Positions 38,463-64,000 of a stretch of 64,000 nucleotides of DNA are shown in pieces. The DNA is taken from the NCBI GenBank assembly GCA_903827975.1, contig CAIKKG010000024.1:523-64522 (forward strand), in the 5' to 3' direction. This stretch comes from an uncultured bacterium (GTDB taxonomy: Bacteria; Patescibacteriota; Minisyncoccia; UBA6257; GWB1-50-10). A program made the translations under genes and the position numbers. Below the pieces are notes generated by a model. That model was not told the DNA's origin and ran no database searches. It was given only the letters and a program-made list of their open reading frames with translations. Within the stretch, counting starts at the first letter, position 1. Each line of letters begins with the position of its first letter.

Positions 38463-38876
38463 ATGAAACAACTAGTTGCTCTAACTGTTTTGTTACTGGT
38501 CGCCTTTGCAATTTTTATGCCCACACACAACGCGCAGGCTTTAAGTATCTGGGCTGGTGCAAAGTGTGGTGGCGCGGTGATTGGTCTGAATGATGGGCCC
38601 ACTGGCGCGTGTAATCTTTGTGATGCAATGATCGTGCTTCGAAACATAATAAACTTCGGGTTTACGCTCGCCATCTCGATAAGCACTGGTATGATTGCGT
38701 GGGGTGCTGTTCGTATGATGACTGCTGGAGGTAGTGAGAGTAACGTTAGTGAGGCAAAGAAAATAATATTTAGTGCCATAACTGGTGTAGCAATTGCACT
38801 TGGTTCGTGGATTATAGTAAATACATTATTCTCCGTGTTTACCGGTTCGTGGAACTGGAATCATTTCACGTGTTAA
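38463..38876 (+). CDS. VirB2/TrbC-like pilin-module protein, paralog 1
   Basis: A signal peptide (…THNAQA) is followed by Cys residues and a hydrophobic-charged loop-hydrophobic hairpin (LAISISTGMIAWGAVRMMTAGGSESNVSEAKKIIFSAITGVAIALGSWIIV). The hairpin is shared with 38893, 39598 and 61648. Confidence 0.6.
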   Translation: MKQLVALTVLLLVAFAIFMPTHNAQALSIWAGAKCGGAVIGLNDGPTGACNLCDAMIVLRNIINFGFTLAISISTGMIAWGAVRMMTAGGSESNVSEAKKIIFSAITGVAIALGSWIIVNTLFSVFTGSWNWNHFTC

Positions 38877-38892
38877 TATAAATAATAAATAA

Positions 38893-39579
38893 ATGAAAAA
38901 ATCTATTTTAAGAAAAATATTGTTTGTTGCACTAATCGTTATCGCGATATCCTTTCCATCGGTTTCTGTGGTCCGCGCACAATGCGCCCCAAACTCTAGT
39001 CAGTGCCCAGCAGAACTGTGTGGTGGAACATCAGGCTTTGTAGATAGCGATGGTGTGTGCTACACATCAGCAAGTTGTACCAACTCAAATATGTGTACTG
39101 GCGTTGTAACTGGTGGTGTATGTAATCCATCAAATGATTGTGCGTCCTCTTGCGGTGGAAGTCAGGGATATGCGGATAGTGAGGGATCATGCTACACAAG
39201 CTCGGCGTGTAATAACTATACTAGGTGTTCTGGTGGAACTAATACTGGTGGTGGCAATGCTGGTAGTGGTAATAATACTGGCGGGTTAGGTATTGGAGGT
39301 GGTGGCAATGCTGGATCAGACATGCAACTACAGAATCCTCTTGGGGTGAGTAGTATAAATGGTCTCATCAACAGAATAATTGATATTCTTATTATTTTAG
39401 GCATTCCTATTGCTAGTGGAATGATTATATGGGCGGCGTTCCTCTTCATGACCTCTGGTGGCGAGCCAGATAAGCTAACAACCGCAAGACACGCAATATT
39501 GTGGACTGTTATTGGATTTGTTATACTTTTAATTGCTAAGGGTATTGCTAGTATTATCAGGTCCGTTATGGGTATATAA
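38893..39579 (+). CDS. Pilin-module protein, paralog 2, with an N-terminal duplicated Cys-rich domain and a Gly-rich linker
   Basis: After the signal peptide come two copies of a roughly 33-aa Cys motif (C..G.SG[FY].DS[DE]G.CYTS..C.N...C.G), then GGNAGSGNNTGG and the conserved C-terminal 2-TM hairpin (LFMTSGGEPDKLTTARHAILWTVIGFVILLIAKG). Confidence 0.6.
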   Translation: MKKSILRKILFVALIVIAISFPSVSVVRAQCAPNSSQCPAELCGGTSGFVDSDGVCYTSASCTNSNMCTGVVTGGVCNPSNDCASSCGGSQGYADSEGSCYTSSACNNYTRCSGGTNTGGGNAGSGNNTGGLGIGGGGNAGSDMQLQNPLGVSSINGLINRIIDILIILGIPIASGMIIWAAFLFMTSGGEPDKLTTARHAILWTVIGFVILLIAKGIASIIRSVMGI

Positions 39580-39597
39580 CTAAAAAAATATTCTGAA

Positions 39598-39999
39598 ATG
39601 AAAGGTCGGATGTTTGTTTATATAATAAATCAATTTATGAAAAATCTAATAAAATATTCAGTACTTGGTCTTTCAATGTTTCCAGTATTAGCATCTGCTG
39701 CTAATGCAATAACTGGTGGTCCTACAAGTGCTGGTGATGTTTGGACTATAATCAATAATCTTTTGGGTTGGATGGTTGGTCTTTTCTTTTTGGCTGCGAC
39801 TGTTTTTATTCTTTTGGCCGGTTTCAAATATATGACTGCGGCTGGAGATGAGTCAAAGGTTACAGAAGCAAAAAACTATCTTACATATGCTGTAATAGGT
39901 ATTGCTGTTGGGCTTTTAGCATTTGCTATCCCAAATATTCTTGCCTCATTCCTAAAAGTTAATGTTCCGACTGGGGGTCCAGCTGGACAGGCCTTCTAA
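39598..39999 (+). CDS. Pilin-module protein, paralog 3. The ATG at 39637 is an alternative start.
   Basis: It has a signal peptide and the conserved hairpin (AGFKYMTAAGDESKVTEAKNYLTYAVIGIAVGLLAFAIP). Confidence 0.6.
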   Translation: MKGRMFVYIINQFMKNLIKYSVLGLSMFPVLASAANAITGGPTSAGDVWTIINNLLGWMVGLFFLAATVFILLAGFKYMTAAGDESKVTEAKNYLTYAVIGIAVGLLAFAIPNILASFLKVNVPTGGPAGQAF

Positions 40000-40713: not shown

Positions 40714-41604
40714 TTATTCCTCCTTCCTTCTAACTCCGTGAAATGCTTCGTGTACCTCATGAAGCTCTTTATTTGTAAGATGAGTATAGACCTGAGTTGT
40801 AGAAATATTTGCGTGACCCAGTAATTCCTGCACCGAGCGAAGATCTGCTCCATTAATTAATAGATCTGTTGCAAATGAGTGGCGTAACTCATGAGGATGA
40901 ACTCGCTTCGCAATCCCAGCCTTCCTCGCATATGTATCAACTAAACGCTGAACAGTTCTTGGAATTATTCTACCTAAAATCTTACCTGTTTTTGCAATAC
41001 TAACAAAAAGTGCCTCCTCAGCATCTGTTCGTTTTTCTAAATACTCTTTAATTGCTTTTTTTGAACTTGTAGAAAGAAACACAACACGAATCTTCTCTCC
41101 CTTTCCTCGAACAGAAAGCTCACCACGAGTTAGATCTATATAGCGTGGAAGATTGCATATCTCTGAGACTCGGAGCCCCGTTGAAAACAGAACCTCGAGT
41201 ACGGCCCTATCGCGAAGTGCACGAAGCGAGTCTCCTTCTGGTGCCGCAAGCAATCGTTCGAGCTCTTTATACTCCAAAACCTCTATATCTCTCCTTGCAA
41301 CCTTCGGTAGTTCTATTGTTTCTGGCGCTAGAGACTTTATTCCACGGCGCACAAGGTACTTTAAAAAATTGCGAAGTGAGATTACGTAGTAATTTTGCGT
41401 TATTTTTTTAATATTCTTGCGGGCTAGCGTAATGCGGAATGATCGCACAACCGAGTCTGTTATCTCGCCTGGAGTCTCAACACCAGTCTCCTTTAAAAAT
41501 ACCGTTAGGTAGTGCGAATAATTTTCACGCGTTTTAAGAGAACGGTTCTTTTCAATCTCAAGATAGTCCAAATACTCCTGAAAAAGCTTCTTAATCTCGC
41601 TCAT
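40714..41604 (-). CDS. xerD: Tyrosine site-specific recombinase of the XerC/XerD type
   Basis: The 296-aa protein has an N-terminal core-binding domain (LDYLEIEKNRSLKTRENY) and a C-terminal catalytic region HPHELRHSFATDLLINGADLRSVQELLGHANISTTQVYTHL, with the R...HxxR...Y residues. Confidence 0.8.
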   Translation of the reverse strand: MSEIKKLFQEYLDYLEIEKNRSLKTRENYSHYLTVFLKETGVETPGEITDSVVRSFRITLARKNIKKITQNYYVISLRNFLKYLVRRGIKSLAPETIELPKVARRDIEVLEYKELERLLAAPEGDSLRALRDRAVLEVLFSTGLRVSEICNLPRYIDLTRGELSVRGKGEKIRVVFLSTSSKKAIKEYLEKRTDAEEALFVSIAKTGKILGRIIPRTVQRLVDTYARKAGIAKRVHPHELRHSFATDLLINGADLRSVQELLGHANISTTQVYTHLTNKELHEVHEAFHGVRRKEE

Positions 41605-49606: not shown

Positions 49607-50425
49607 ATGCGACAAAAATTTGGTCAGCACTTTCTTAAGAGTTCTGAAAAATTAAAATTAATATCTGAAGCAATACAAATTCAGGCGGGGGATACGGTAA
49701 TCGAGATAGGCCCAGGCCACGGCGAGCTAACCAACTTTATTATTGCTGAATTAGAGGGCCTCAAAAATACCAAGCTTATTCTGATTGAGCGCGATATTTT
49801 ACTTATCCCAGAGCTTCGTAGGAAGTTTAGCACCGCACTTTCTATTGGTAGATTAGAAATTATTGAGGGGGATGCTTTGTTTGAACTTCCGAAACTTGCT
49901 GAGAGGGAGAATATAAAAAATCTATCCTATAAACTGGTTGGTAATATTCCTTATTACATAACTGGATCTCTATTTCGAGTCATTGAGGGGTTGAAGAATA
50001 AGCCCTCGCTTGCAGTCTTCACACTTCAAAAAGAGGTTGCTATTCGCGTAACAGCTGACTCACCAAAAATGAACCTGCTTTCTGCGAGTGTTAAATACTT
50101 TGCGAACTCTGAGCTATTGATGATTTTATCAAAGGACTTATTCTCCCCGCCTCCGGAGGTTGATTCTGCGGTGATCCGCCTTGTAACACTTCCCGAGCCG
50201 GATGTAACACCACCAGAATTTTATTATACTTTTATAAAAGCTCTTTTTAAGCAGCCTAGAAAAACTCTTTTAAATAATCTAAAGGAGCTTCCTGAGTTTG
50301 GCGCGCTCTCACATGATGAACAGGAAAAATTACTTAGTGGTTTTGGTGTTTTGGAAAGCTCAAGACCGCAAGATATGCACATAAGCGCTATAAAACAATT
50401 AGCGAATGTGTTGTATACTAAATAG
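49607..50425 (+). CDS. rsmA: 16S rRNA (adenine1518/1519-N6)-dimethyltransferase
   Basis: MRQKFGQHFLKS followed by a SAM-binding VIEIGPGHGELT motif. Confidence 0.9.
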   Translation: MRQKFGQHFLKSSEKLKLISEAIQIQAGDTVIEIGPGHGELTNFIIAELEGLKNTKLILIERDILLIPELRRKFSTALSIGRLEIIEGDALFELPKLAERENIKNLSYKLVGNIPYYITGSLFRVIEGLKNKPSLAVFTLQKEVAIRVTADSPKMNLLSASVKYFANSELLMILSKDLFSPPPEVDSAVIRLVTLPEPDVTPPEFYYTFIKALFKQPRKTLLNNLKELPEFGALSHDEQEKLLSGFGVLESSRPQDMHISAIKQLANVLYTK

Positions 50426-53206: not shown

Positions 53207-55237
53207 ATGAAGCTTCTCAATAAAAAACTGTTACTGGTTTTAGGAATCGTTCTTCTTTCTGGACTTGTCGTCCCTCATTTAGCGCATGCAGCTGGTATGA
53301 TGGAACAGGCACTTACAGATGTAGTAACCTATACCTTTAAATTCATTACCTATATTTTTGCATATATAGGTTCGGTATTATTCAGTTTTGCCGGTATGCT
53401 AGTGGACTACACACTGAGACTTAATATGACTGTTGGGGATACTGAAAAGAATCTTCTTCTTGGTGTTGGTTGGGGCATCACAAAAGATATTGCAAACCTT
53501 GGCTTCGTGCTCGCTATGATTATTATTGCGTTCGCAACAATAATCGGAAATGAAAGTTATGGATACAAAAAATTACTTGCTAATTTAATTGGTGCTGCGA
53601 TTGCTGTAAACTTCAGTCTTGCAATTGCTGGGGTATTTATCGATTTCTCTCATGTTATTACTGTATTTTTTATAAATAAAATAAGTACTACTGGCGCTTC
53701 TGGCATGGCTGAGCAGATGGCAAATGCGTTTAGCGTTCAGAATTTTCTATTAGAGGACTCTAACAATCCACTACCTCCGAATCCGTCTGAGGAGAGTGGG
53801 ACAATGTCACGCCTAAGTACTGCGGTTGTAATCTCTCTTGTGAGTTTAGTCTTTGTACTTGTGTTCACAATAACGGCTGCAATTATATTTTTAATATTTG
53901 CAATAATGCTTCTCGCTCGATATGTCTGGCTATCATTCCTTCTTATTATCGCTCCGATAACATGGTTGTTCTGGGTTATCCCTGGAATGAGTGGTAAGTT
54001 CGGAGAGTGGTGGAGTAACTTCTTAAAACAGGTTTTCTTTGCACCAGCAATGACGTTCTTCCTATATCTTGCTTTTATGAGTGTGCAGGGTCTTGCCGAA
54101 AAACCAGCCACGGGTGCTTTCTTCAAAGATGGCGCGCTTGCAGCAATAATAAGTTCTGGAGCTAATATGGTTGTTTTGATTGGAATCCTTGTTGGTGGAC
54201 TTATAACAGCTGAAAAAATGGGCGCAACTGGCGCAAAAATGGGAATGGAGAGATTGTCTGCTTTGGGTGGCGCCTCAAAGGATTATGCAGGGAGTATAGC
54301 TAAGAAATATGGTAAGAAGGTTGCAGAAACAAAAGCTGTTAAGAGTGTGCAGAGTGCAGCCCTTCGTGTTGGCTCTAGCGCAAGGAAGCTTGCTGAATAT
54401 AAACCAACAAGTAGAACTGGTAAGATTTTGACCGCTGTAACAGGGCTAGGTCTTGCAAAGTCTGTTGTTGGACTTGGAGGAGAAAAATTACAAAATATTG
54501 GTGGCGTGCCAGTAAATCCGGACTCGCTTGGTTCAAGGGCCTGGTCTGCGGTCTGGGGTAAGTATCCTGATAATCGCGCTCAATCTAAGAAGGATGCTGA
54601 TGAGAGGGAACAAAACAAGGGAGCTGAGGAGCTCACGGCTGATCATGAGAAACTACGCACCGAGCGACAGAGGCTTGTTGATAATGGCGTAAGTGAGAAA
54701 GACCCAAGAATTGTCACTATGGATAAGCAACTTGGAAAGCTAAAATCAAGTGTTGTAGAGAAAACAAGCCTACCAAAAGACGTAGAAGGATTAATTAACA
54801 AAGAAAAGGAATTGAAGTTGAAGTTGGAAGAATTGGCAGCTGGTGGTAGTGACATCTCTGTGATTAAAAAGCAACTTGAGAAAGCAACTGATGAACTTGA
54901 TAAGGCTCAAAGAGAGGACTCGAAAATAACACCGGCTAGTAGGGCGTGGAAGAGCCACCGCATTACAAAAGAAGCCACTAGAATGGCTGGTATAATAGGC
55001 GGAAAAATAAAACCTGGTGAGCCAGACCCAGACACAGACACAGATTCCGCTATAGCACAAGAGAAATTATGGCGCGAAATTGATACGCAGAAGAAGCCTA
55101 ACTCCAAACCAGCTTGGGCGGAACGCGTAATTAAACTCGACGCTGCTCTAACAGAAGCTACTGCTGCCCACCTTCCACCTGACGCACTTAAGTACATTGG
55201 GGATTTAAAGGCTGAGGCGATTGATAAGAGTACATAA
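53207..55237 (+). CDS. VirB6/TrbL-like polytopic inner-membrane channel protein with a C-terminal coiled-coil charged tail
   Basis: The 676-aa protein has a signal or TM N-terminus, at least 6 TM helices across the first 350 residues, then a K/E-rich coiled coil. Confidence 0.5.
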   Translation: MKLLNKKLLLVLGIVLLSGLVVPHLAHAAGMMEQALTDVVTYTFKFITYIFAYIGSVLFSFAGMLVDYTLRLNMTVGDTEKNLLLGVGWGITKDIANLGFVLAMIIIAFATIIGNESYGYKKLLANLIGAAIAVNFSLAIAGVFIDFSHVITVFFINKISTTGASGMAEQMANAFSVQNFLLEDSNNPLPPNPSEESGTMSRLSTAVVISLVSLVFVLVFTITAAIIFLIFAIMLLARYVWLSFLLIIAPITWLFWVIPGMSGKFGEWWSNFLKQVFFAPAMTFFLYLAFMSVQGLAEKPATGAFFKDGALAAIISSGANMVVLIGILVGGLITAEKMGATGAKMGMERLSALGGASKDYAGSIAKKYGKKVAETKAVKSVQSAALRVGSSARKLAEYKPTSRTGKILTAVTGLGLAKSVVGLGGEKLQNIGGVPVNPDSLGSRAWSAVWGKYPDNRAQSKKDADEREQNKGAEELTADHEKLRTERQRLVDNGVSEKDPRIVTMDKQLGKLKSSVVEKTSLPKDVEGLINKEKELKLKLEELAAGGSDISVIKKQLEKATDELDKAQREDSKITPASRAWKSHRITKEATRMAGIIGGKIKPGEPDPDTDTDSAIAQEKLWREIDTQKKPNSKPAWAERVIKLDAALTEATAAHLPPDALKYIGDLKAEAIDKST

Positions 55238-56959: not shown

Positions 56960-57598
56960 ATGGCTGATATAAGCATCCCAACACAACAATTCGTTGACGT
57001 AAAAGAAGTACGCGATGGCGTTTTGTATTTAAAGTCTGGTGGTATCCGCAAAATACTTATCGTCGGCGGAATTAACTTTGATCTCAAATCAGAAGGTGAG
57101 CAAAATACAATACTTGCAAGTTTCCAGAATTTTTTAAATACAATTGATTTTCCTATACAACTTCTCATTCACTCAAGAAAGGTTAATGTTGAGAGTTATC
57201 TTTCGAAAATGGTTCAGTTAAAAGATAAAGAGGATAATGAACTTTTAAAAATACAGATTGGTGAATATATAAACTTCATACGTTCTTTTGTTGATGAGAA
57301 CGCAATAATTAGTAAGGTATTTTTAGTTGTTGTCCCATATGAGTCTGCTTCTGCGAAATCAAGTTCATCTGGTTTTTTTGATATTTTTAAAAAACAGACG
57401 AAGGTTGAGATTAATGAGTCCGAAAATGCTGCAATAGAGCAACTTAATCATAGGGTTTCTGAGGTGACCGACGGATTAATGCAGGTTGGTCTTAATGTTA
57501 CATCACTTAATAGTGATGAGATTACTGAGTTGTTTTACAATATGTACAATCCACAACTAGCCGAGAAGAAAAATATGGACTTAATAAAAGAATCATAA
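56960..57598 (+). CDS. VirB4/TraE-type conjugation-family ATPase, N-terminal domain ORF
   Basis: MADISIPTQQFVDVKEVRDGVLYLKSGGIRKILIVGGINFDLKSEGEQNTILASFQNFLNTIDFPIQLLIH matches the N-terminal membrane-proximal domain of Gram-positive-type VirB4 (TcpF/PrgJ-like). It ends with TAA-GAA-TAA, in frame with the next ORF. Confidence 0.6.
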   Translation: MADISIPTQQFVDVKEVRDGVLYLKSGGIRKILIVGGINFDLKSEGEQNTILASFQNFLNTIDFPIQLLIHSRKVNVESYLSKMVQLKDKEDNELLKIQIGEYINFIRSFVDENAIISKVFLVVVPYESASAKSSSSGFFDIFKKQTKVEINESENAAIEQLNHRVSEVTDGLMQVGLNVTSLNSDEITELFYNMYNPQLAEKKNMDLIKES

Positions 57599-59362: not shown

Positions 59363-59752
59363 ATGCCTAAAAAAACGCCGCAAACCCCGCAGAAAAAAAT
59401 GGGTGAGCCACTAGCGGAACCAAAGTTTGGTATGGTTGAGCTATTTTTAGGTTCTTTTTTTTGTCTTCTACTTGATTTGTTATCAGCCATCACAGCAATA
59501 GCTTTTGTGGGTCTTTTCGTAAAATCTTTCTCGTGGCTTATTTTTACTTTTTGGTTTAAAATTAAGAAGTGTCATGTTGCAGATAGTCTTATTGGAAGAT
59601 TTCTTGTTCCAGTATTTGTAAATTTAATTCCAATTGTTCCAACTTTAGCCGCAACGTTTCTTGTCTCCGCATATATGGAGAATCACCCAGAAAAGTTTGC
59701 CGCCGTTGAACAACTGACCCCAGCAACTGCAAATGTTCCCATTAAAAAATAA
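59363..59752 (+). CDS. Hypothetical small membrane protein of the T4SS-like operon
   Basis: The 129-aa protein has 3 TM helices. Confidence 0.4.
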   Translation: MPKKTPQTPQKKMGEPLAEPKFGMVELFLGSFFCLLLDLLSAITAIAFVGLFVKSFSWLIFTFWFKIKKCHVADSLIGRFLVPVFVNLIPIVPTLAATFLVSAYMENHPEKFAAVEQLTPATANVPIKK

Positions 59753-60452
59753 AACTATGAGATTTTTTTTCAAAATAGTAATCACAGCATTTTCTTTTAT
59801 CGCTCTTGTTTCAACAACAAATGTTTTTGCTGCTCCTGTTGTTACCCCTCAAATTCCACCGCGTTTAATTCTTTCTTGGAGTGCGTCGAGCATTCACCCG
59901 TCTAACTATAAGGGCAAGGTTCTTCCTTCTTTAAACACGCCAATAGTTGTTTCTGTTGAGTTGCTCGCAAATGGTAAGTTTGCCGATATATCTAAAACAA
60001 CAATTATTTGGAGAAAGTCTGGAGAGGTGATTAAGCGTGGTGTCGGATTAAAACAAATATTTATTGCACCTGACTCAAATGATTCAAGTGATGTTTTTAT
60101 AGATGCTGAGGTTGATTTTGCTAACAACGTTGTGGAACAGTCGCTTTTGATCCCCGTTGTAAAACCTTTTGTTTCTATCGAGATACCATATCCAAACTCT
60201 GTTGTTCGTGGTGATTCTGATGTAACAATTAGAGCGACCCCTTATTTTTTCAATGCCTCTTCTCTTGATGATCTTGTTTTTTACTGGCAGATTGGTGATA
60301 TAAAAAAGAATATGGAACAGAACAACTCCATCACACTTAAGGTTTCTGGTGCTTATTCCTCCCAGGATAGCCTTCCTATAACCTCGTATGTGCAGAGCAG
60401 GGATGTGTTAACTGATATAATAGTAACTAACAAACCGTTATTTGTTCGATAA
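59733..60452 (+). CDS. Hypothetical exported protein of the T4SS-like operon
   Basis: The 239-aa protein has a signal peptide (…TNVFAAP). Confidence 0.45.
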   Translation: MFPLKNKTMRFFFKIVITAFSFIALVSTTNVFAAPVVTPQIPPRLILSWSASSIHPSNYKGKVLPSLNTPIVVSVELLANGKFADISKTTIIWRKSGEVIKRGVGLKQIFIAPDSNDSSDVFIDAEVDFANNVVEQSLLIPVVKPFVSIEIPYPNSVVRGDSDVTIRATPYFFNASSLDDLVFYWQIGDIKKNMEQNNSITLKVSGAYSSQDSLPITSYVQSRDVLTDIIVTNKPLFVR

Positions 60453-60458
60453 TCACGC

Positions 60459-61670
60459 ATGAAACCAATTTATAAAATTCTTATTACTTTAGTTGTAATA
60501 ATCATCGTCATATTCCTTTCATATTTCTTGTGGACAAAGTTTTTTGCGCCAAAGTCTGTGACGCCACAAGAGCCTGGAACTGGTGTGATAATTACACCTC
60601 CTAGTGATAATAATGGTCAGACTGGAGGAGGTGATAATCCTCCGGGTGGCGCGCCAGGCACATCAACACCTACAACATCTAACGTGGATGAGTATTTATT
60701 TAAAAAACTTTCTGATAAGCCGGCTCTGGCTTTTTGGGTCTCTATAACTGGTAATACGGCTTTTTATGTTTCTGAGTCTGGCGTAGTTATGGAGGCTAAG
60801 GATGGAGAGGACTCTGTAGTTTCAAAACAACCAATCTCTAATTTTATAAGTTTAGAGGCGTCTCCATCTGGTGAGAAGGTTATTCTTTCCTTTGGAAGTC
60901 CGTCAAATATTCAATTGGCAATTTTTGATTCTGTTGATAAGGTTTTGCGCCCACTTCCAAAAGAAATCTTAAGTGCTTCGTGGGCTGGAACTGATAATCA
61001 GTTGGTTGGTGTCACACAACAAAATGATGTAACTCTACTCTCATTAATAAATATCTCAAAACAACCCTACACTTACAAGACGCTTGTAACAAATTTTTCT
61101 ATAAAGGATGCTTTGTTTTCTGCCAAGTCAGCAACTGAGATTTTAATCTCTGAAAAACCTTCATCTCACTCTCTATCTGGCGTCTGGCAACTAGATACTG
61201 ACACCGGCGTTATGACACTTGTTGTGAGCCCTGCTCTTGGTTCTTTTATAAGGTGGGCTAGTGGAAAGGATTTAATGTTTAAGTTCGCATCACCAAATAA
61301 GTTTTCAATACTGGATCGTTCCTTTGGTGAAATATCGCCGGTGTTATTTACAACGCTACCAAATAAATGTGATGGTGGTCTTGATGTGATTTATTGTTTT
61401 ATTCCTAAAGACAAGGGTGTTTTCTCAAATACAAACTCGATGCCTGACGATTATTTTATGAATAATATCTTCACTAGTGACGATTTTTATAAAATCTCTC
61501 CGTCCTCCGGCATTGAATCACTTATAATGGCTGGTGGGTCGGGTAAGATTCCGGTTATTGATGCGGATAATGTCTCATATGCAAACTCATCAACTTATTT
61601 TATTAATAAGTATGATAATTATGTTTATGCAATTCAAAAAACAACAAATGAAGTTATTAATGATTACTAA
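60459..61670 (+). CDS. Hypothetical membrane-anchored extracytoplasmic protein of the T4SS-like operon
   Basis: The 403-aa protein has an N-terminal TM anchor and a Gly/Pro/Thr linker. Confidence 0.45.
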   Translation: MKPIYKILITLVVIIIVIFLSYFLWTKFFAPKSVTPQEPGTGVIITPPSDNNGQTGGGDNPPGGAPGTSTPTTSNVDEYLFKKLSDKPALAFWVSITGNTAFYVSESGVVMEAKDGEDSVVSKQPISNFISLEASPSGEKVILSFGSPSNIQLAIFDSVDKVLRPLPKEILSASWAGTDNQLVGVTQQNDVTLLSLINISKQPYTYKTLVTNFSIKDALFSAKSATEILISEKPSSHSLSGVWQLDTDTGVMTLVVSPALGSFIRWASGKDLMFKFASPNKFSILDRSFGEISPVLFTTLPNKCDGGLDVIYCFIPKDKGVFSNTNSMPDDYFMNNIFTSDDFYKISPSSGIESLIMAGGSGKIPVIDADNVSYANSSTYFINKYDNYVYAIQKTTNEVINDY

Positions 61671-63081
61671 AAAGGTTTTACTGTCCTTGTTTGTGGTTGT
61701 TGCTGTGTTTGCTCCAATGTACTTATTTGCAGCGGAAACAGCATCGACTGGCCCAACACCGATTGTTGTTACAATGTCATCACCAATGCCGTGCATTCCA
61801 GTTCCTTTCATGGGTGGGAACACCTGCTCACAACCCGCAGGAGACTCAGCTATTCAGACTTATATAAAACTTTTGTATCAATTCGCGGTTGGAATCTCTG
61901 GTATTGTTGCTGTAGGAATGATTGTGTGGGGATCTATTCAGATTTCTTTATTTAGCGAGAGTATAACCCAGAAAAGTGAGGGGAGGGATAAAATTACGTC
62001 AGCAATAATTGGTGTTATTCTTCTTCTTGGTTCTTATTTGCTACTTAATACTATAAACCCGAGAATTGTTCAGCTTGGTCAGACACTTACAACTGTTAAA
62101 CAAGCAAAGCCGTCATCAGACATTGCAAAGGTTGGTGTGTCGAGTTGTGGAACATCAACTTTAATATCAGGAGCGGTTGGTACACCAATAGATTTTAATG
62201 TTAAACCAGACGCTGGTAATACTTGTAAATATAGAAAGCTTTTTGTATATAGAGATGGTTTTACAATTTCTGGTATGGATGCTGCATATTATGGTGGTTC
62301 TGGTGATGTTCAAATAGCGGCGCAGTCTGTTATTTGGCTCTACCCTTATCGCGTGAAGGGGGCTGTGGAAACATTTGATAGCAACGGCACACTAGCAAGC
62401 GCTAAGTGTATTGTATATGCATATAAAGAGCCTAGTATGACGAGTATTCGTTTTACAAACCTACAAAATACAATTGAGCCTTGTGTGTTAAGTGACAAAC
62501 AGGAAGATGGGTATGTTGGTGGTCCTGGGTCAGGAGTTGGTAACGTTTCTGGAGATGTAAAGGATTTAGCCAATCAATTAGGTAGTCCAAACTCTACTGT
62601 GAAATTCTCTACGGACAATTCTTGTAATCCTCCCGGCTCTGCCGCAAAAAATATTCTTTATTCTATGCAAAACGGAACGGCGCCTTTTGTCTGCTCTGCT
62701 GGTTGTCAAACAAACAAAACAGAGTGCACACAAAATGGGGCTTATCCTGAGGCTTCTATATTAAAAGCAATTATAGCCCTGCAAAATTCTAAAACAACAG
62801 TTTCGACGGTCACTAGTTTAACTGGTGGTGATCATTCGGCTAATTCTGGGCATTACCAAGGTACAGCTTTTGATCTCAGTGTAGGATCAAGCAACACAGA
62901 TGATTGGAATAATGTTATGAAAATTTTAAATACTTCGGGTGTTACAGCATACTGCGAATACCAAGGACCTGGGGAGGATAAAGCTAAACTTCACACAAAA
63001 TGTGCAACTGGAATAAGTGGTGGGCATCTCCATGTACAGGTCAATAAAAACAGTAATGCTATAAACAATGGGACTCCATAA
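61648..63081 (+). CDS. Fusion protein with an N-terminal VirB2/TrbC-like pilin module and a C-terminal M15-family zinc peptidoglycan peptidase domain
   Basis: After the signal peptide comes the conserved hairpin AVGISGIVAVGMIVWGSIQISLFSESITQKSEGRDKITSAIIGVILLLGSYLLLNT, paralogous to 38463, 38893 and 39598. The C-terminus has SGHYQGTAFDL and GGHLHVQV (H-x6-D ... H-x-H zinc site of M15, VanY/endolysin type). The start was trimmed from the ORF-track 61534 to the ATG after the upstream stop. Confidence 0.6.
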   Translation: MKLLMITKKVLLSLFVVVAVFAPMYLFAAETASTGPTPIVVTMSSPMPCIPVPFMGGNTCSQPAGDSAIQTYIKLLYQFAVGISGIVAVGMIVWGSIQISLFSESITQKSEGRDKITSAIIGVILLLGSYLLLNTINPRIVQLGQTLTTVKQAKPSSDIAKVGVSSCGTSTLISGAVGTPIDFNVKPDAGNTCKYRKLFVYRDGFTISGMDAAYYGGSGDVQIAAQSVIWLYPYRVKGAVETFDSNGTLASAKCIVYAYKEPSMTSIRFTNLQNTIEPCVLSDKQEDGYVGGPGSGVGNVSGDVKDLANQLGSPNSTVKFSTDNSCNPPGSAAKNILYSMQNGTAPFVCSAGCQTNKTECTQNGAYPEASILKAIIALQNSKTTVSTVTSLTGGDHSANSGHYQGTAFDLSVGSSNTDDWNNVMKILNTSGVTAYCEYQGPGEDKAKLHTKCATGISGGHLHVQVNKNSNAINNGTP

Positions 63082-63083
63082 AA

Positions 63084-63118
63084 ATAAAAATCCCCGCTTT
63101 ATGCGGGGATTTTTTTAT
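63084..63118. terminator. Bidirectional terminator between the T4SS-like operon and jag
   Basis: AAAAATCCCCGCTTTATGCGGGGATTTTTTT. Confidence 0.75.
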
Positions 63119-63543
63119 GAGACGAATTTTATTACAACCCTTCTTTCTTTTCCCATTCCAGTACTCTCTGTTTTAAGTTCTGGATTTGCTGTTATCTCCA
63201 TATGCACCAGGCGCCTCTCATAGCCGTTCATTGCGGGTAGTTCGACTTCTTGCTTCGTTATCATCGCTTTGCGTGCTGCAGCCTTAACCAGCTCCACTAT
63301 TAGGCGTTCTCGCTCCTTCCTGTAGTAGTTTAGATCAATAACGTGGGGAATAAGACCCTCTTTCTTTAAAACGATGTTTATTATGTGATCTATTGCCGGA
63401 AGTATTATTTCTACATTATCGGACACAAACCTGTCGTCAATAAGAATGATAACTTTCCTGCGCTCCTCGTCGATAGCAACCTCGGCCTCCGGATACCCGA
63501 GAAGTGCTATTATCTCCTTTGTTTTCTCAATAATAGGGTTCAT
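63115..63543 (-). CDS. jag: Jag/KhpB-family RNA-binding protein with KH-like and R3H domains
   Basis: The 142-aa protein has the R3H motif NGYERRLVHMEI and sits downstream of yidC as in the rnpA-yidC-jag operon. Confidence 0.7.
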   Translation of the reverse strand: MNPIIEKTKEIIALLGYPEAEVAIDEERRKVIILIDDRFVSDNVEIILPAIDHIINIVLKKEGLIPHVIDLNYYRKERERLIVELVKAAARKAMITKQEVELPAMNGYERRLVHMEITANPELKTESTGMGKERRVVIKFVS

Positions 63544-63563
63544 TGGTTTAGGTTTACAGTATA

Positions 63564-64000
63564 CTACTCATCTTCAAATTTTGGCAATCTTTTGTTGATA
63601 TACATCTGTTGGAATATGGAGAAGATACCGGAAACGGTCCAATAAACACTGAGTGCTGTTGGTAGATTGATGAGTATTAGAAGTGTAAATGCGGGACCTA
63701 TTACAGACATTGTTTTGGCCATCCCAGCCATAGGGTTGTCACTTGTTGTGTCTTTCTGCGCGCCCATCATCAATTTTGTTTGGATATATTGTGCTATTCC
63801 AGCAACAATAGGCATTAAATAACCTTTTGTTCCTAGATCAATAAGCCCTAGGAATGTTGTTGTCGCAAAAATTCCAGTTGATAGCTCCTTTGAGAATACT
63901 TGGAATAAAACTATGAACACTGGAAGCTGAAGTATAAGCAATAAGATTCCTGAAAATGGGTTTAGTTTATATTTTTTGTATAAACTAAGCATCTCCTGTG
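63564..64000 (-). CDS. yidC: Membrane protein insertase YidC. The N-terminus lies beyond the window end.
   Basis: …QEMLSLYKKYKLNPFSGILLLILQLPVFIVLF… is the conserved YidC C1-loop to TM3-5 region, and the frame is open to the window edge. Confidence 0.75.
   Translation of the reverse strand, partial: QEMLSLYKKYKLNPFSGILLLILQLPVFIVLFQVFSKELSTGIFATTTFLGLIDLGTKGYLMPIVAGIAQYIQTKLMMGAQKDTTSDNPMAGMAKTMSVIGPAFTLLILINLPTALSVYWTVSGIFSIFQQMYINKRLPKFEDE

Follow-up and report, generated by a model that had tools for sequence, protein, structure and literature searches.

What does a peptidase-like domain do on a pilin? The question is raised by an open reading frame (ORF) at 61648–63081 of a 64,000-nucleotide stretch of DNA from an uncultured member of the Patescibacteriota (GWB1-50-10; contig CAIKKG010000024.1, positions 523–64,522 of the forward strand), which is referred to here as the window. 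The ORF closes a cluster of type IV secretion system (T4SS) genes, and its product joins a VirB2-type pilin module to a C-terminal domain with the fold and zinc-site motifs of the LAS superfamily of metallopeptidases; its nearest homologue carries the NCBI annotation "pilin" and nothing more. The answer that we favor, and regard as probable, is that a Paceibacteria-like organism has, on its chromosome and close to the origin, a T4SS of the monoderm type, and that the gene supplies this machine with a cell-wall peptidase of its own.

Domain Organization of the Fusion Protein

The ORF is uninterrupted, with a second in-frame ATG at 61660, and the start of P0001, an NCBI homologue with 97% identity, lies 7 codons upstream of the called start. 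The peptide quoted in a preliminary description of this DNA, GMIVWGSIQISLFSESITQKSEGRDKITSAIIGVILLLGSY, is found in the translation. That description outlined two modules, a pilin module and a C-terminal zinc-site domain, both of which are present, but it missed a conserved middle domain, and four parts make up the protein, namely a signal peptide, a VirB2-type hairpin, a Cys-rich and β-rich middle domain, and a C-terminal peptidase-fold domain. The features, in window coordinates, are as follows.

61648–63081, + strand: whole fusion ORF, 477 residues plus stop; pilin-like module with a C-terminal LAS-fold peptidase domain
61648–61734, + strand: predicted Sec signal peptide, residues 1–29 (87 nucleotides); K-rich n-region, hydrophobic core, ending in LFA/AE
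61735–61842, + strand: predicted extracytoplasmic N-terminal linker with conserved Cys residues C49 and C60; disordered, low model confidence
61843–62055, + strand: VirB2/TrbC-type pilin hairpin; PF18895 at residues 66–128, modelled helices 68–102 and 109–136
62047–62076, + strand: junction motif NTINPRIVQL, residues 134–143, at the exit of the second hairpin helix
62140–62517, + strand: middle domain, residues 165–290; β-rich, four invariant Cys, motifs WxYPY and C-x-YA
62545–63057, + strand: C-terminal Hedgehog/DD-peptidase (LAS) fold domain; α/β, modelled at residues 300–470, six conserved Cys
62833–62874, + strand: H396 and H402-x6-D409, one half of the predicted zinc site; by hhalign H396 corresponds to H135 of Sonic hedgehog (Shh) and H402/D409 to Shh H141/D148
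62956–62958, + strand: E437, candidate general base, likened to Shh E177 and VanX E181 for its strand-end position and its conservation
63025–63033, + strand: H460-L-H462, an H-x-H motif with the putative second zinc-ligand His, assigned from motif and conservation

The cleavage site of the signal peptide was placed by eye and by comparison with homologues (VxA/Q type). An AlphaFold2 model of the whole protein, built from 18 sequences, has an overall predicted local distance difference test score (pLDDT) of 71, with the middle and C-terminal domains at ∼83–85; the linker past the hairpin is poorly conserved and modelled with low confidence. Mean pairwise identity is 69% in the hairpin, 41% in the middle domain, 34% in the C-terminal domain (C-domain) and 32% in the signal peptide. 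Twelve Cys residues are conserved in the exported parts, two in the linker, four in the middle domain and six in the C-domain. A profile of the middle domain matched, among PDB sequences, only pertussis-like toxin B subunits, at E=0.5–0.9, which is not significant.

The C-terminal Domain Retains a Predicted Zinc-peptidase Active Site

The case for an enzyme begins with the C-domain, which carries S400-x-H402-x-x-G405-x-A407-x-D409 at 62845–62874 and G458-G459-H460-L-H462 at 63019–63033, and with them both zinc motifs of the LAS superfamily, H-x(6)-D (H402YQGTAFD409) and H-x-H (H460LH462). We scored conservation of the active site over 128 full-length domains, drawn from clusters at 50% identity. 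H402, D409 and H460 are kept in 128/128, H396 in 127/128 and H462 in 125/128, the remaining three having Asp at this position. The residue equivalent to E437 is Glu or Asp in 125/128 and ends a β-strand as in Shh; HMMER put E177 three columns off. Given that six active-site positions are kept in 125–128 of 128 domains, and that the architecture recurs in close and in distant homologues, the combination of fusion and motifs is not a matter of chance. The SxHxxGxAxD … GGHxH motifs of the preliminary description are thus present, and their His and Asp positions are near-invariant in this family.

The relationships of the domain lie closest to Hedgehog. No Pfam or NCBIfam model matches the C-domain at E<0.1 when the full protein is scanned. 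A profile of 13 homologues, searched against PDB sequences, matched the N-domains of Sonic, Indian and Desert hedgehog at E=8e-4 to 0.02, with a phage L-Ala-D-Glu peptidase far weaker, and a broader 41-sequence profile brought Shh to E=4e-5, with M15C peptidases next at E ∼0.1. In hhalign, the 41-sequence profile aligned to mouse Shh-N with 92% probability (E=7e-7), and in this alignment the H..H-x6-D blocks coincide, TGGDHSANSGHYQGTAFD being paired with EDGHHSEESLHYEGRAVD. Structure comparisons gave the same picture and recognized the LAS fold, in which helices flank a central antiparallel sheet: in a Foldseek search with the full model the top 38 matches were all Hedgehog N-domains (probability 0.77–1.0), and comparison of the C-domain with individual structures returned values of 8.0 and 7.7 for Shh, 7.0 for Drosophila Hh, 6.5 for the Streptomyces Zn DD-peptidase 1LBU, 6.2 for the phage T5 L-Ala-D-Glu peptidase, 6.1 for VanX, 5.9 for MepA, 5.8 for both Ply500 and LysB4, 5.7 for the RB49 peptidase and 5.0 for VanXYc. 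The C-domain lacks the acidic segment with which Hedgehog binds calcium (in hhalign, SL--TGG stands opposite EGWDEDG of Shh), and the N-terminal calcium ligands of Shh fall outside the region aligned with the C-domain. In a search of the full protein against PDB sequences, a weak low-complexity match to the adhesin 6vs7 (E=0.003) was discarded.

Across family members the sub-threshold Pfam matches are to HH_signal, Peptidase_M15_3 and Peptidase_M15_4 only, all three of which we take to belong to the Pfam clan Peptidase_MD. The M15 models are reached neither by the full protein (no match at E<0.1) nor by the C-domain alone (M15_3, 14.4 bits against a threshold of 23.2), and the best M15_4 scores among relatives, 19.8 bits for L028 and 17.1 bits for P0010, lie below the threshold of 25. 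HH_signal (PF01085) likewise has no match in the query and a best score of 20.7 bits among relatives against a threshold of 22.1; it is matched at E<0.01 by 11/119 relatives. The C-domain is therefore M15-like by fold and motif and a member of M15 by no profile threshold. The M15 assignment made earlier holds at the level of the superfamily and not at that of the M15 Pfam models, and among known proteins the domain stands closest to Shh-N and to the M15A Zn DD-peptidase, not to VanY or endolysins in particular. No match was found by tblastn of the C-domain against phage records or of the whole fusion protein against plasmid records, which leaves a recent phage-endolysin or plasmid origin unsupported. 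The outcome that the preliminary description named as refuting, a non-peptidase family and a fold without a His/Asp/His metal site, did not come about: the nearest profile, the Hedgehog N-domain, is no peptidase family by name, yet it has the same zinc-peptidase fold, and the metal site of the C-domain is intact. We read it as an as yet unmodelled branch of the LAS superfamily with what its residues indicate is an intact metallopeptidase active site under selection.

The Pilin Module Is a True PF18895 Hairpin

Hydrophobic windows begin at residues 1–15, 73–85 and 114–120 (Kyte-Doolittle, 19-residue mean >1.6), and both the model and the hydropathy display the hallmark of PF18895, in which two hydrophobic helices form a hairpin behind the signal peptide. 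Residues 66–128 match Pfam PF18895 (T4SS_pilin) with 33.0 bits against a cut-off of 26.6 (E=6.3e-8), and NCBIfam returned weak matches to pilin-like conjugal transfer proteins. The small single-module size of that family (∼100–230 residues) is not seen here, the fusion being 477 residues long with two further domains. The window also holds a set of free pilins of the same family.

38463–39999, + strand: three free PF18895 pilin paralogs, in an array 22 kb from the fusion gene

The free pilins score 26.7 bits (38463–38876), 43.3 bits (38893–39579) and 52.7 bits (39598–39999) against PF18895. All four modules in the window are thus above the family threshold, and the earlier statement that the N-terminal module is of the same kind as the three paralogs is correct at the family level; because the four are only 16–29% identical in pairwise comparison, they are family-level kin rather than near-duplicates or recent copies. 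The middle free pilin (38893–39579) has an N-terminal extension of ∼130 residues before its hairpin, consisting of two alike Cys-rich repeats (…GGTSGFVDSDGVCYTSASCTNSNMCTG…, …GGSQGYADSEGSCYTSSACNNYTRCSG…) and a Gly/Asn-rich stretch. Just past the array, an ORF on the − strand (40714–41604) that ends …HELRHSFATDLL…LLGHANISTTQVYTH… resembles, by eye, a tyrosine recombinase of the XerC/XerD type.

Within the fusion protein the hairpin is the best-conserved part, at an identity twice that of the enzyme domain. This degree of conservation points to specific protein contacts made by the hairpin and argues against a passive anchor. Directly after hairpin helix 2 stands the junction motif, which can be generalized as L-x-T-(I/V)-N-P-x-L-V-x-L; of 161 proteins examined, 110 have its core, [ILVF]-N-P-x-[LIVFM], whereas the three free pilins of the window lack the motif. 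It may cap the helix where this meets the membrane surface, or serve as a site of processing.

The Fusion Is the Dominant Architecture of a Large Family

The preliminary description asked whether the fusion is conserved in relatives, and it is. The full architecture is common to 17 close homologues, and an exhaustive search with the C-domain profile recovered 779 clusters (50% identity) at E<=1e-3, 211 of them at E<=1e-10. Of 119 C-domain representatives of up to 430 residues, 98 also match PF18895 (E<=0.01), and several of the 21 that do not are visibly N-terminal fragments. Most representatives are ∼300 residues long and consist of hairpin and enzyme domain, without a middle domain. The same C-domain is found on two pilin sub-types, one with the TINPxLV junction and one of the LVPCG...CxxCD type. 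Informative names among the cluster members are limited to "Candidatus Moranbacteria" and one "uncultured bacterium" record of the ACD series. The arrangement had been called non-standard by comparison with VirB1. A pilin-hairpin anchor is indeed unusual, but the VirB1 benchmark is a Gram-negative one, and in the Candidate Phyla Radiation (CPR) the fusion, with its 98 of 119 representatives, is common.

The head carried by the hairpin can change. In P0015 and P0017, counted as orthologues, the hairpin and the middle domain are kept and the C-domain is replaced by a region with an AESGG...GLFQIN lysozyme motif (SLT_3, E=0.012), whereas P0042 and P0066 combine hairpin and C-domain with a true SLT domain (E=1e-11 and 2e-18). 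Two tandem Hedgehog/DD-peptidase-like domains stand behind a single hairpin in P0018, P0021, P0022, P0023, P0026, P0031, P0032, P0044 and P0111; the gene for P0018, at locus L006, lies downstream of PrgI, TraC-like and VirB4 genes.

We also scanned GTDB species representatives with hairpin patterns, a search that samples relatives of the hairpin and not of the C-domain. It returned 41 loci, mostly from metagenome-assembled genomes (MAGs) named as CPR lineages and several labelled "bacterium" or as other taxa, and virB4 lies within 6 kb upstream in 25 of the 41. The hairpin ORFs of these loci are mostly 250–550 residues long, with varied C-terminal heads: a head of the C-domain family in ∼10 of the 41, SLT-like heads in L033 (by motif) and L036 (Pfam SLT, E=1e-3), an M15_4-like head in L028 (E=1e-3), long coiled coils in L020 and L031, Cys-rich heads and further H..D/HxH domains. 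The H..D/HxH heads of L015, L019 and L032 were not assigned to the C-domain family (hhalign probability only 6–24%). The occurrence of interchangeable heads on a hairpin gene that follows virB4 in L007–L047 suggests, at the sequence level, a family of modular VirB2-type pilins. Hairpins of the CPR type also turn up on contigs labelled Nanoarchaeia archaeon (L037) and Gammaproteobacteria or Pseudomonadales (L029, L035, L038, L039, L045), which are probably mis-binned or mislabelled MAGs; a DPANN occurrence of the CPR-type hairpin would be of interest if true.

The Fusion Gene Belongs to an Origin-proximal T4SS Cluster

The fusion gene is the last of the + strand T4SS cluster and the fourth gene after virB4. 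Its surroundings are as follows.

53207–55237, + strand: VirB6/TrbL-like membrane protein, 43% identical to a TrbL_3-bearing gene of L001
56448–56930, + strand: PrgI family (VirB3-like) T4SS cluster gene
56960–57598, + strand: TraC-like gene, 59% identity to the PF26593 TraC-like gene of L001
57608–59359, + strand: VirB4-type ATPase (TraG P-loop, AAA_10, DUF87)
59363–61670, + strand: three conserved genes of 129, 239 and 403 residues between virB4 and the fusion gene, function unassigned
63115–63992, − strand: jag (R3H) and yidC, directly past the fusion gene

The 5′ end of the fusion ORF overlaps the stop codon of the preceding gene (61668–61670), which, being typical of operons, argues for an operon setting. 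The position of the gene is syntenic in L001, L003 and L006. On the contigs of P0008 and P0017 the same order continues into rnpA and then dnaA-dnaN, and it is because the order of these relatives runs on in this way that we place the T4SS cluster close to the origin. The three genes at 59363–61670 have no Pfam match and are syntenic in L001 and L003, with 27–40% identity; we take them for conserved T4SS components of the lineage, judging by sequence, with their function unassigned. Directly upstream of the T4SS cluster lies a KsgA/RsmA rRNA adenine dimethylase gene (49607–50425; Pfam RrnaAD, E=2e-40), and a neighborhood of this type is the one reported for the T4SS of Patescibacteria (PMC12102498). 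These systems sit at the replication origin and are related to the monoderm MPF-FATA conjugation machinery; a relaxase is usually missing, the pilins are VirB2-like and VirB1 homologues are few (PMC12102498). The cluster in the window is a monoderm-type (MPF-FATA-like) T4SS.

A Probable Dedicated Wall Peptidase and Its Alternatives

These findings can be assembled into the following mechanism. The protein would be exported by Sec and its signal peptide then removed, and the two hydrophobic helices would enter the membrane as a VirB2-style hairpin whose two ends lie on the outer side. Because a cleaved signal peptide leaves the N terminus outside and two membrane helices follow, the C-terminal 340 residues should lie outside the membrane, a topology that the 12 conserved Cys residues fit. 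The hairpin would dock the protein at the T4SS or pilus-assembly site, as its conservation and the fixed slot three genes after virB4 suggest, so that the middle domain and the zinc metallopeptidase-fold domain that make up those 340 residues would sit in the wall compartment. There the analogy to Shh, VanX and the Streptomyces DD-peptidase would make H402, D409 and H462 zinc ligands and give H396, E437 and H460 a part in catalysis, and the domain would cut peptidoglycan stems or cross-links locally to let the machine or pilus cross the wall, as a functional equivalent of VirB1, PrgK and TraG. That the gene belongs to the T4SS follows from the gene-by-gene synteny of PrgI, TraC-like and VirB4 in the window and in L001 and L003, together with the 25 of 41 GTDB loci. 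The strongest contextual arguments for peptidoglycan as the target are that classes of wall hydrolase are swapped in the same slot and that an SLT domain is paired with the C-domain in one polypeptide; the wall hydrolases of Gram-positive T4SS and the Saccharibacterial protein SEML1_0007, both described below, are the parallels that lead us to read the protein as a wall peptidase with zinc, kept at the machine by its hairpin.

Several points weigh against this reading. HMMER did not directly align the H-x-H of the C-domain to H181/H183 of Shh, and the geometry of the zinc site is deduced from sequence and from the predicted fold. Given that neither an M15 nor an HH_signal Pfam model is reached at threshold, substrate specificity would not be transferable from those families, and peptidase activity is a prediction for the family as a whole. 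Foldseek with the middle domain returned no match, and neither a fold nor a family was found for it. The hairpin may dock to the T4SS, polymerize or merely anchor the protein. Finally, Hedgehog itself serves as a ligand, and the LytM and CHAP domains of PrgK are inactive in vitro and act as regulators, showing that peptidase-like domains of T4SS proteins can be inactive (PMC11323569).

The last two points are also the footing of the proposal that the Hedgehog-like domain is a non-catalytic module that binds a wall or surface ligand (a peptide stem, a glycan or a host protein) as an adhesin or hydrolase regulator. The closest structures are indeed those of signalling Hedgehog domains, in which the zinc site serves to bind ligands, and the protein lacks a glycosidase domain, glycosidase being the activity shown to matter in PrgK. 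However, known inactive relatives such as Drosophila Hh and the PrgK LytM domain have lost the catalytic and metal residues (PMC6027127, PMC11323569), whereas here all six are near-invariant over 128 divergent members, and the C-domain co-occurs with SLT in the classic bifunctional pattern; we hold a binding role to be improbable. More improbable still is a propilin that is cut at the conserved TINPxLVxL junction to release a mature pilin and a free secreted peptidase. TrbC/VirB2 pilins do undergo C-terminal trimming, the junction is strongly conserved in the proteins examined and missing from the free pilins, and the linker that follows it is poorly conserved and modelled with low confidence, but no such protease or cleavage is known, fusions of the LVPCG...CxxCD type carry the same C-domain without the junction motif, and the motif may just cap the helix at the membrane surface. 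To a housekeeping carboxypeptidase or endopeptidase of wall maturation that stands beside the T4SS genes by accident we give almost no credence: enzymes of the M15 and M74 folds often trim walls (VanY, LdcB, MepA), yet the gene keeps its place behind virB4 even in divergent genomes, 98 of 119 representatives join the domain to a module of the T4SS pilin family, and SLT-like heads replace it in the same slot.

The most serious competitor, unlikely as we judge it, is an enzyme-bearing minor or tip pilin, in which the hairpin co-assembles with or caps a pilus of the free PF18895 pilins, and the middle domain and peptidase, borne out to the surface of the host bacterium, open its wall for attachment or transfer. 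Everything observed is compatible with this proposal. In its full form, to which we assign the same low likelihood, the protein would be a modular VirB2-type pilin, placed at the tip or sparsely along the T4SS pilus, and an offensive tool, not an assembly factor. The hairpin, a true member of PF18895, is conserved far beyond the need of a simple anchor, and on topological grounds the C terminus must face outward once the signal peptide is removed. Some members, P0018 among them, have two tandem peptidase domains, and the variable heads found in one slot (peptidase, SLT, coiled coil, Cys-rich) resemble the modular minor pilins of type IV pili. CPR bacteria cannot grow as epibionts without their T4SS and its pilins, and the T4SS of S. 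epibionticum has neither a recognized relaxase nor a recognized coupling protein (PMC10633639, PMC12102498). Against this, no pilus is known from these organisms, and a VirB2-type helical filament leaves no steric room for a 340-residue head on each subunit, which would make the protein a rare subunit at most. The sequence holds nothing that separates an own-wall from a host-wall target, and the hydrolases of Gram-positive T4SS serve assembly with a plain transmembrane anchor, without being pilins. Hence the dedicated wall peptidase, held at the machine by its hairpin, remains the reading that we prefer.

Significance of a Pilin Module with an Enzyme-fold Head

Epibiotic growth of Patescibacteria depends on their T4SS, the substrate and mode of action of which are unknown (PMC10633639, PMC12857230), and a survey of these systems found few VirB1 homologues and proposed that pilus biogenesis may not need VirB1 (PMC12102498). 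Our data suggest that the wall-cutting activity has been missed, since the proteins are scored only as "pilin" and the enzyme domain has no Pfam model; the gap would be filled by the present family, which counts at least 779 sequence clusters and is for the most part fused to the hairpin. The elements are already known singly, namely T4SS wall hydrolases, LAS peptidases and the VirB2-like pilins of CPR bacteria, and a Hedgehog/DD-peptidase in a CPR T4SS appears in a supplementary table. In the literature searched, which was covered in part, we found no description of a fusion between an enzyme and a VirB2-type pilin, of a large domain family, as yet unmodelled, in which such a fusion predominates, of heads exchanged for one another in a fixed slot after virB4, or of any VirB2-family pilin with an appended functional module. 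VirB2-type pilin modules able to carry large functional heads would thus be new for the pilin superfamily, and residues 296–477, with H402, D409 and E437, offer concrete handles on how ultrasmall epibionts cross their own wall or that of the host. Were the tip-pilin proposal true, the protein would give an enzyme-tipped conjugative-type pilus by which epibiotic CPR bacteria breach host walls.

Comparison with Known Systems

With VirB2/TrbC pilins and the PF18895 pilins of CPR bacteria the fusion protein has in common the signal peptide, the two-helix hairpin, an above-threshold Pfam match and linkage to virB4. Canonical members are ∼100–140 residues long with nothing appended, whereas the fusion adds 340 residues with an enzyme fold. 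The concept of a pilin module joined to a functional globular module is that of the modular type IV pilins (PilB and PilC of Streptococcus sanguinis), but the pilin superfamily and the assembly machine are unrelated to those of the fusion, and we know of no wall-hydrolase enzyme module in modular type IV pilins. From the wall peptidases of MEROPS families M15 and M74 (1LBU, VanX, VanXY, the phage enzymes of T5, Ply500 and LysB4, and MepA) the C-domain differs in reaching no Pfam M15 threshold and in having no phage relatives by tblastn.

The best match in both sequence and structure is to the Hedgehog N-domain and the bacterial Hedgehog/DD-peptidases (Roelink 2018, PMC6027127), with which the C-domain has in common H-x6-D, H-x-H and a further His, and probably also the conserved acidic residue, for which E437 is the candidate. 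It differs from Hedgehog in an identity of ∼21% over ∼105 aligned residues, in lying below the HH_signal threshold, in a disulfide-bearing insertion between the Glu and H-x-H, and in the replacement of the calcium segment.

In Gram-positive T4SS, operon-encoded, membrane-anchored, multi-domain wall hydrolases are the norm; PrgK consists of a transmembrane helix with LytM, muramidase and CHAP domains and TraG of SLT and CHAP, and transfer depends on hydrolases of this type, which are brought to the machine through contacts with other proteins (PMC11323569, PMC12102498). Like PrgK of pCF10 and TraG of pIP501, the fusion protein is encoded within a monoderm-type T4SS operon and is a predicted membrane-anchored protein with extracytoplasmic wall-hydrolase domains, and in P0042 and P0066 a glycosidase (SLT) stands beside a peptidase domain, the combination seen in PrgK and TraG (PMC11323569). 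Unlike them, it has as its anchor a signal peptide and a two-helix VirB2-type hairpin rather than a single transmembrane helix, its peptidase is of the Hedgehog/DD-peptidase fold and not CHAP or LytM (M23), it has no glycosidase domain (neither a Pfam scan nor Foldseek found a lysozyme-like or SLT domain in the query), and it has no sequence homology to PrgK or TraG.

The closest parallel within the CPR is SEML1_0007 of the Saccharibacterium Southlakia epibionticum, an essential gene that adjoins virB4 and whose product carries a Hedgehog/DD-peptidase domain in the authors' structure-based table, next to a neighbor with lysozyme-like and Cys-proteinase domains (PMC10633639). It resembles the fusion gene in belonging to a CPR T4SS cluster and in a C terminus assigned to ECOD "Hedgehog/DD-peptidase" (Wang et al. 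2023, Table S2), a likeness drawn from the table description only, and differs in its length of 1113 residues and in having no PF18895 annotation in that table. Its assignment supports the Hedgehog/DD-peptidase fold as a wall enzyme of the CPR T4SS.

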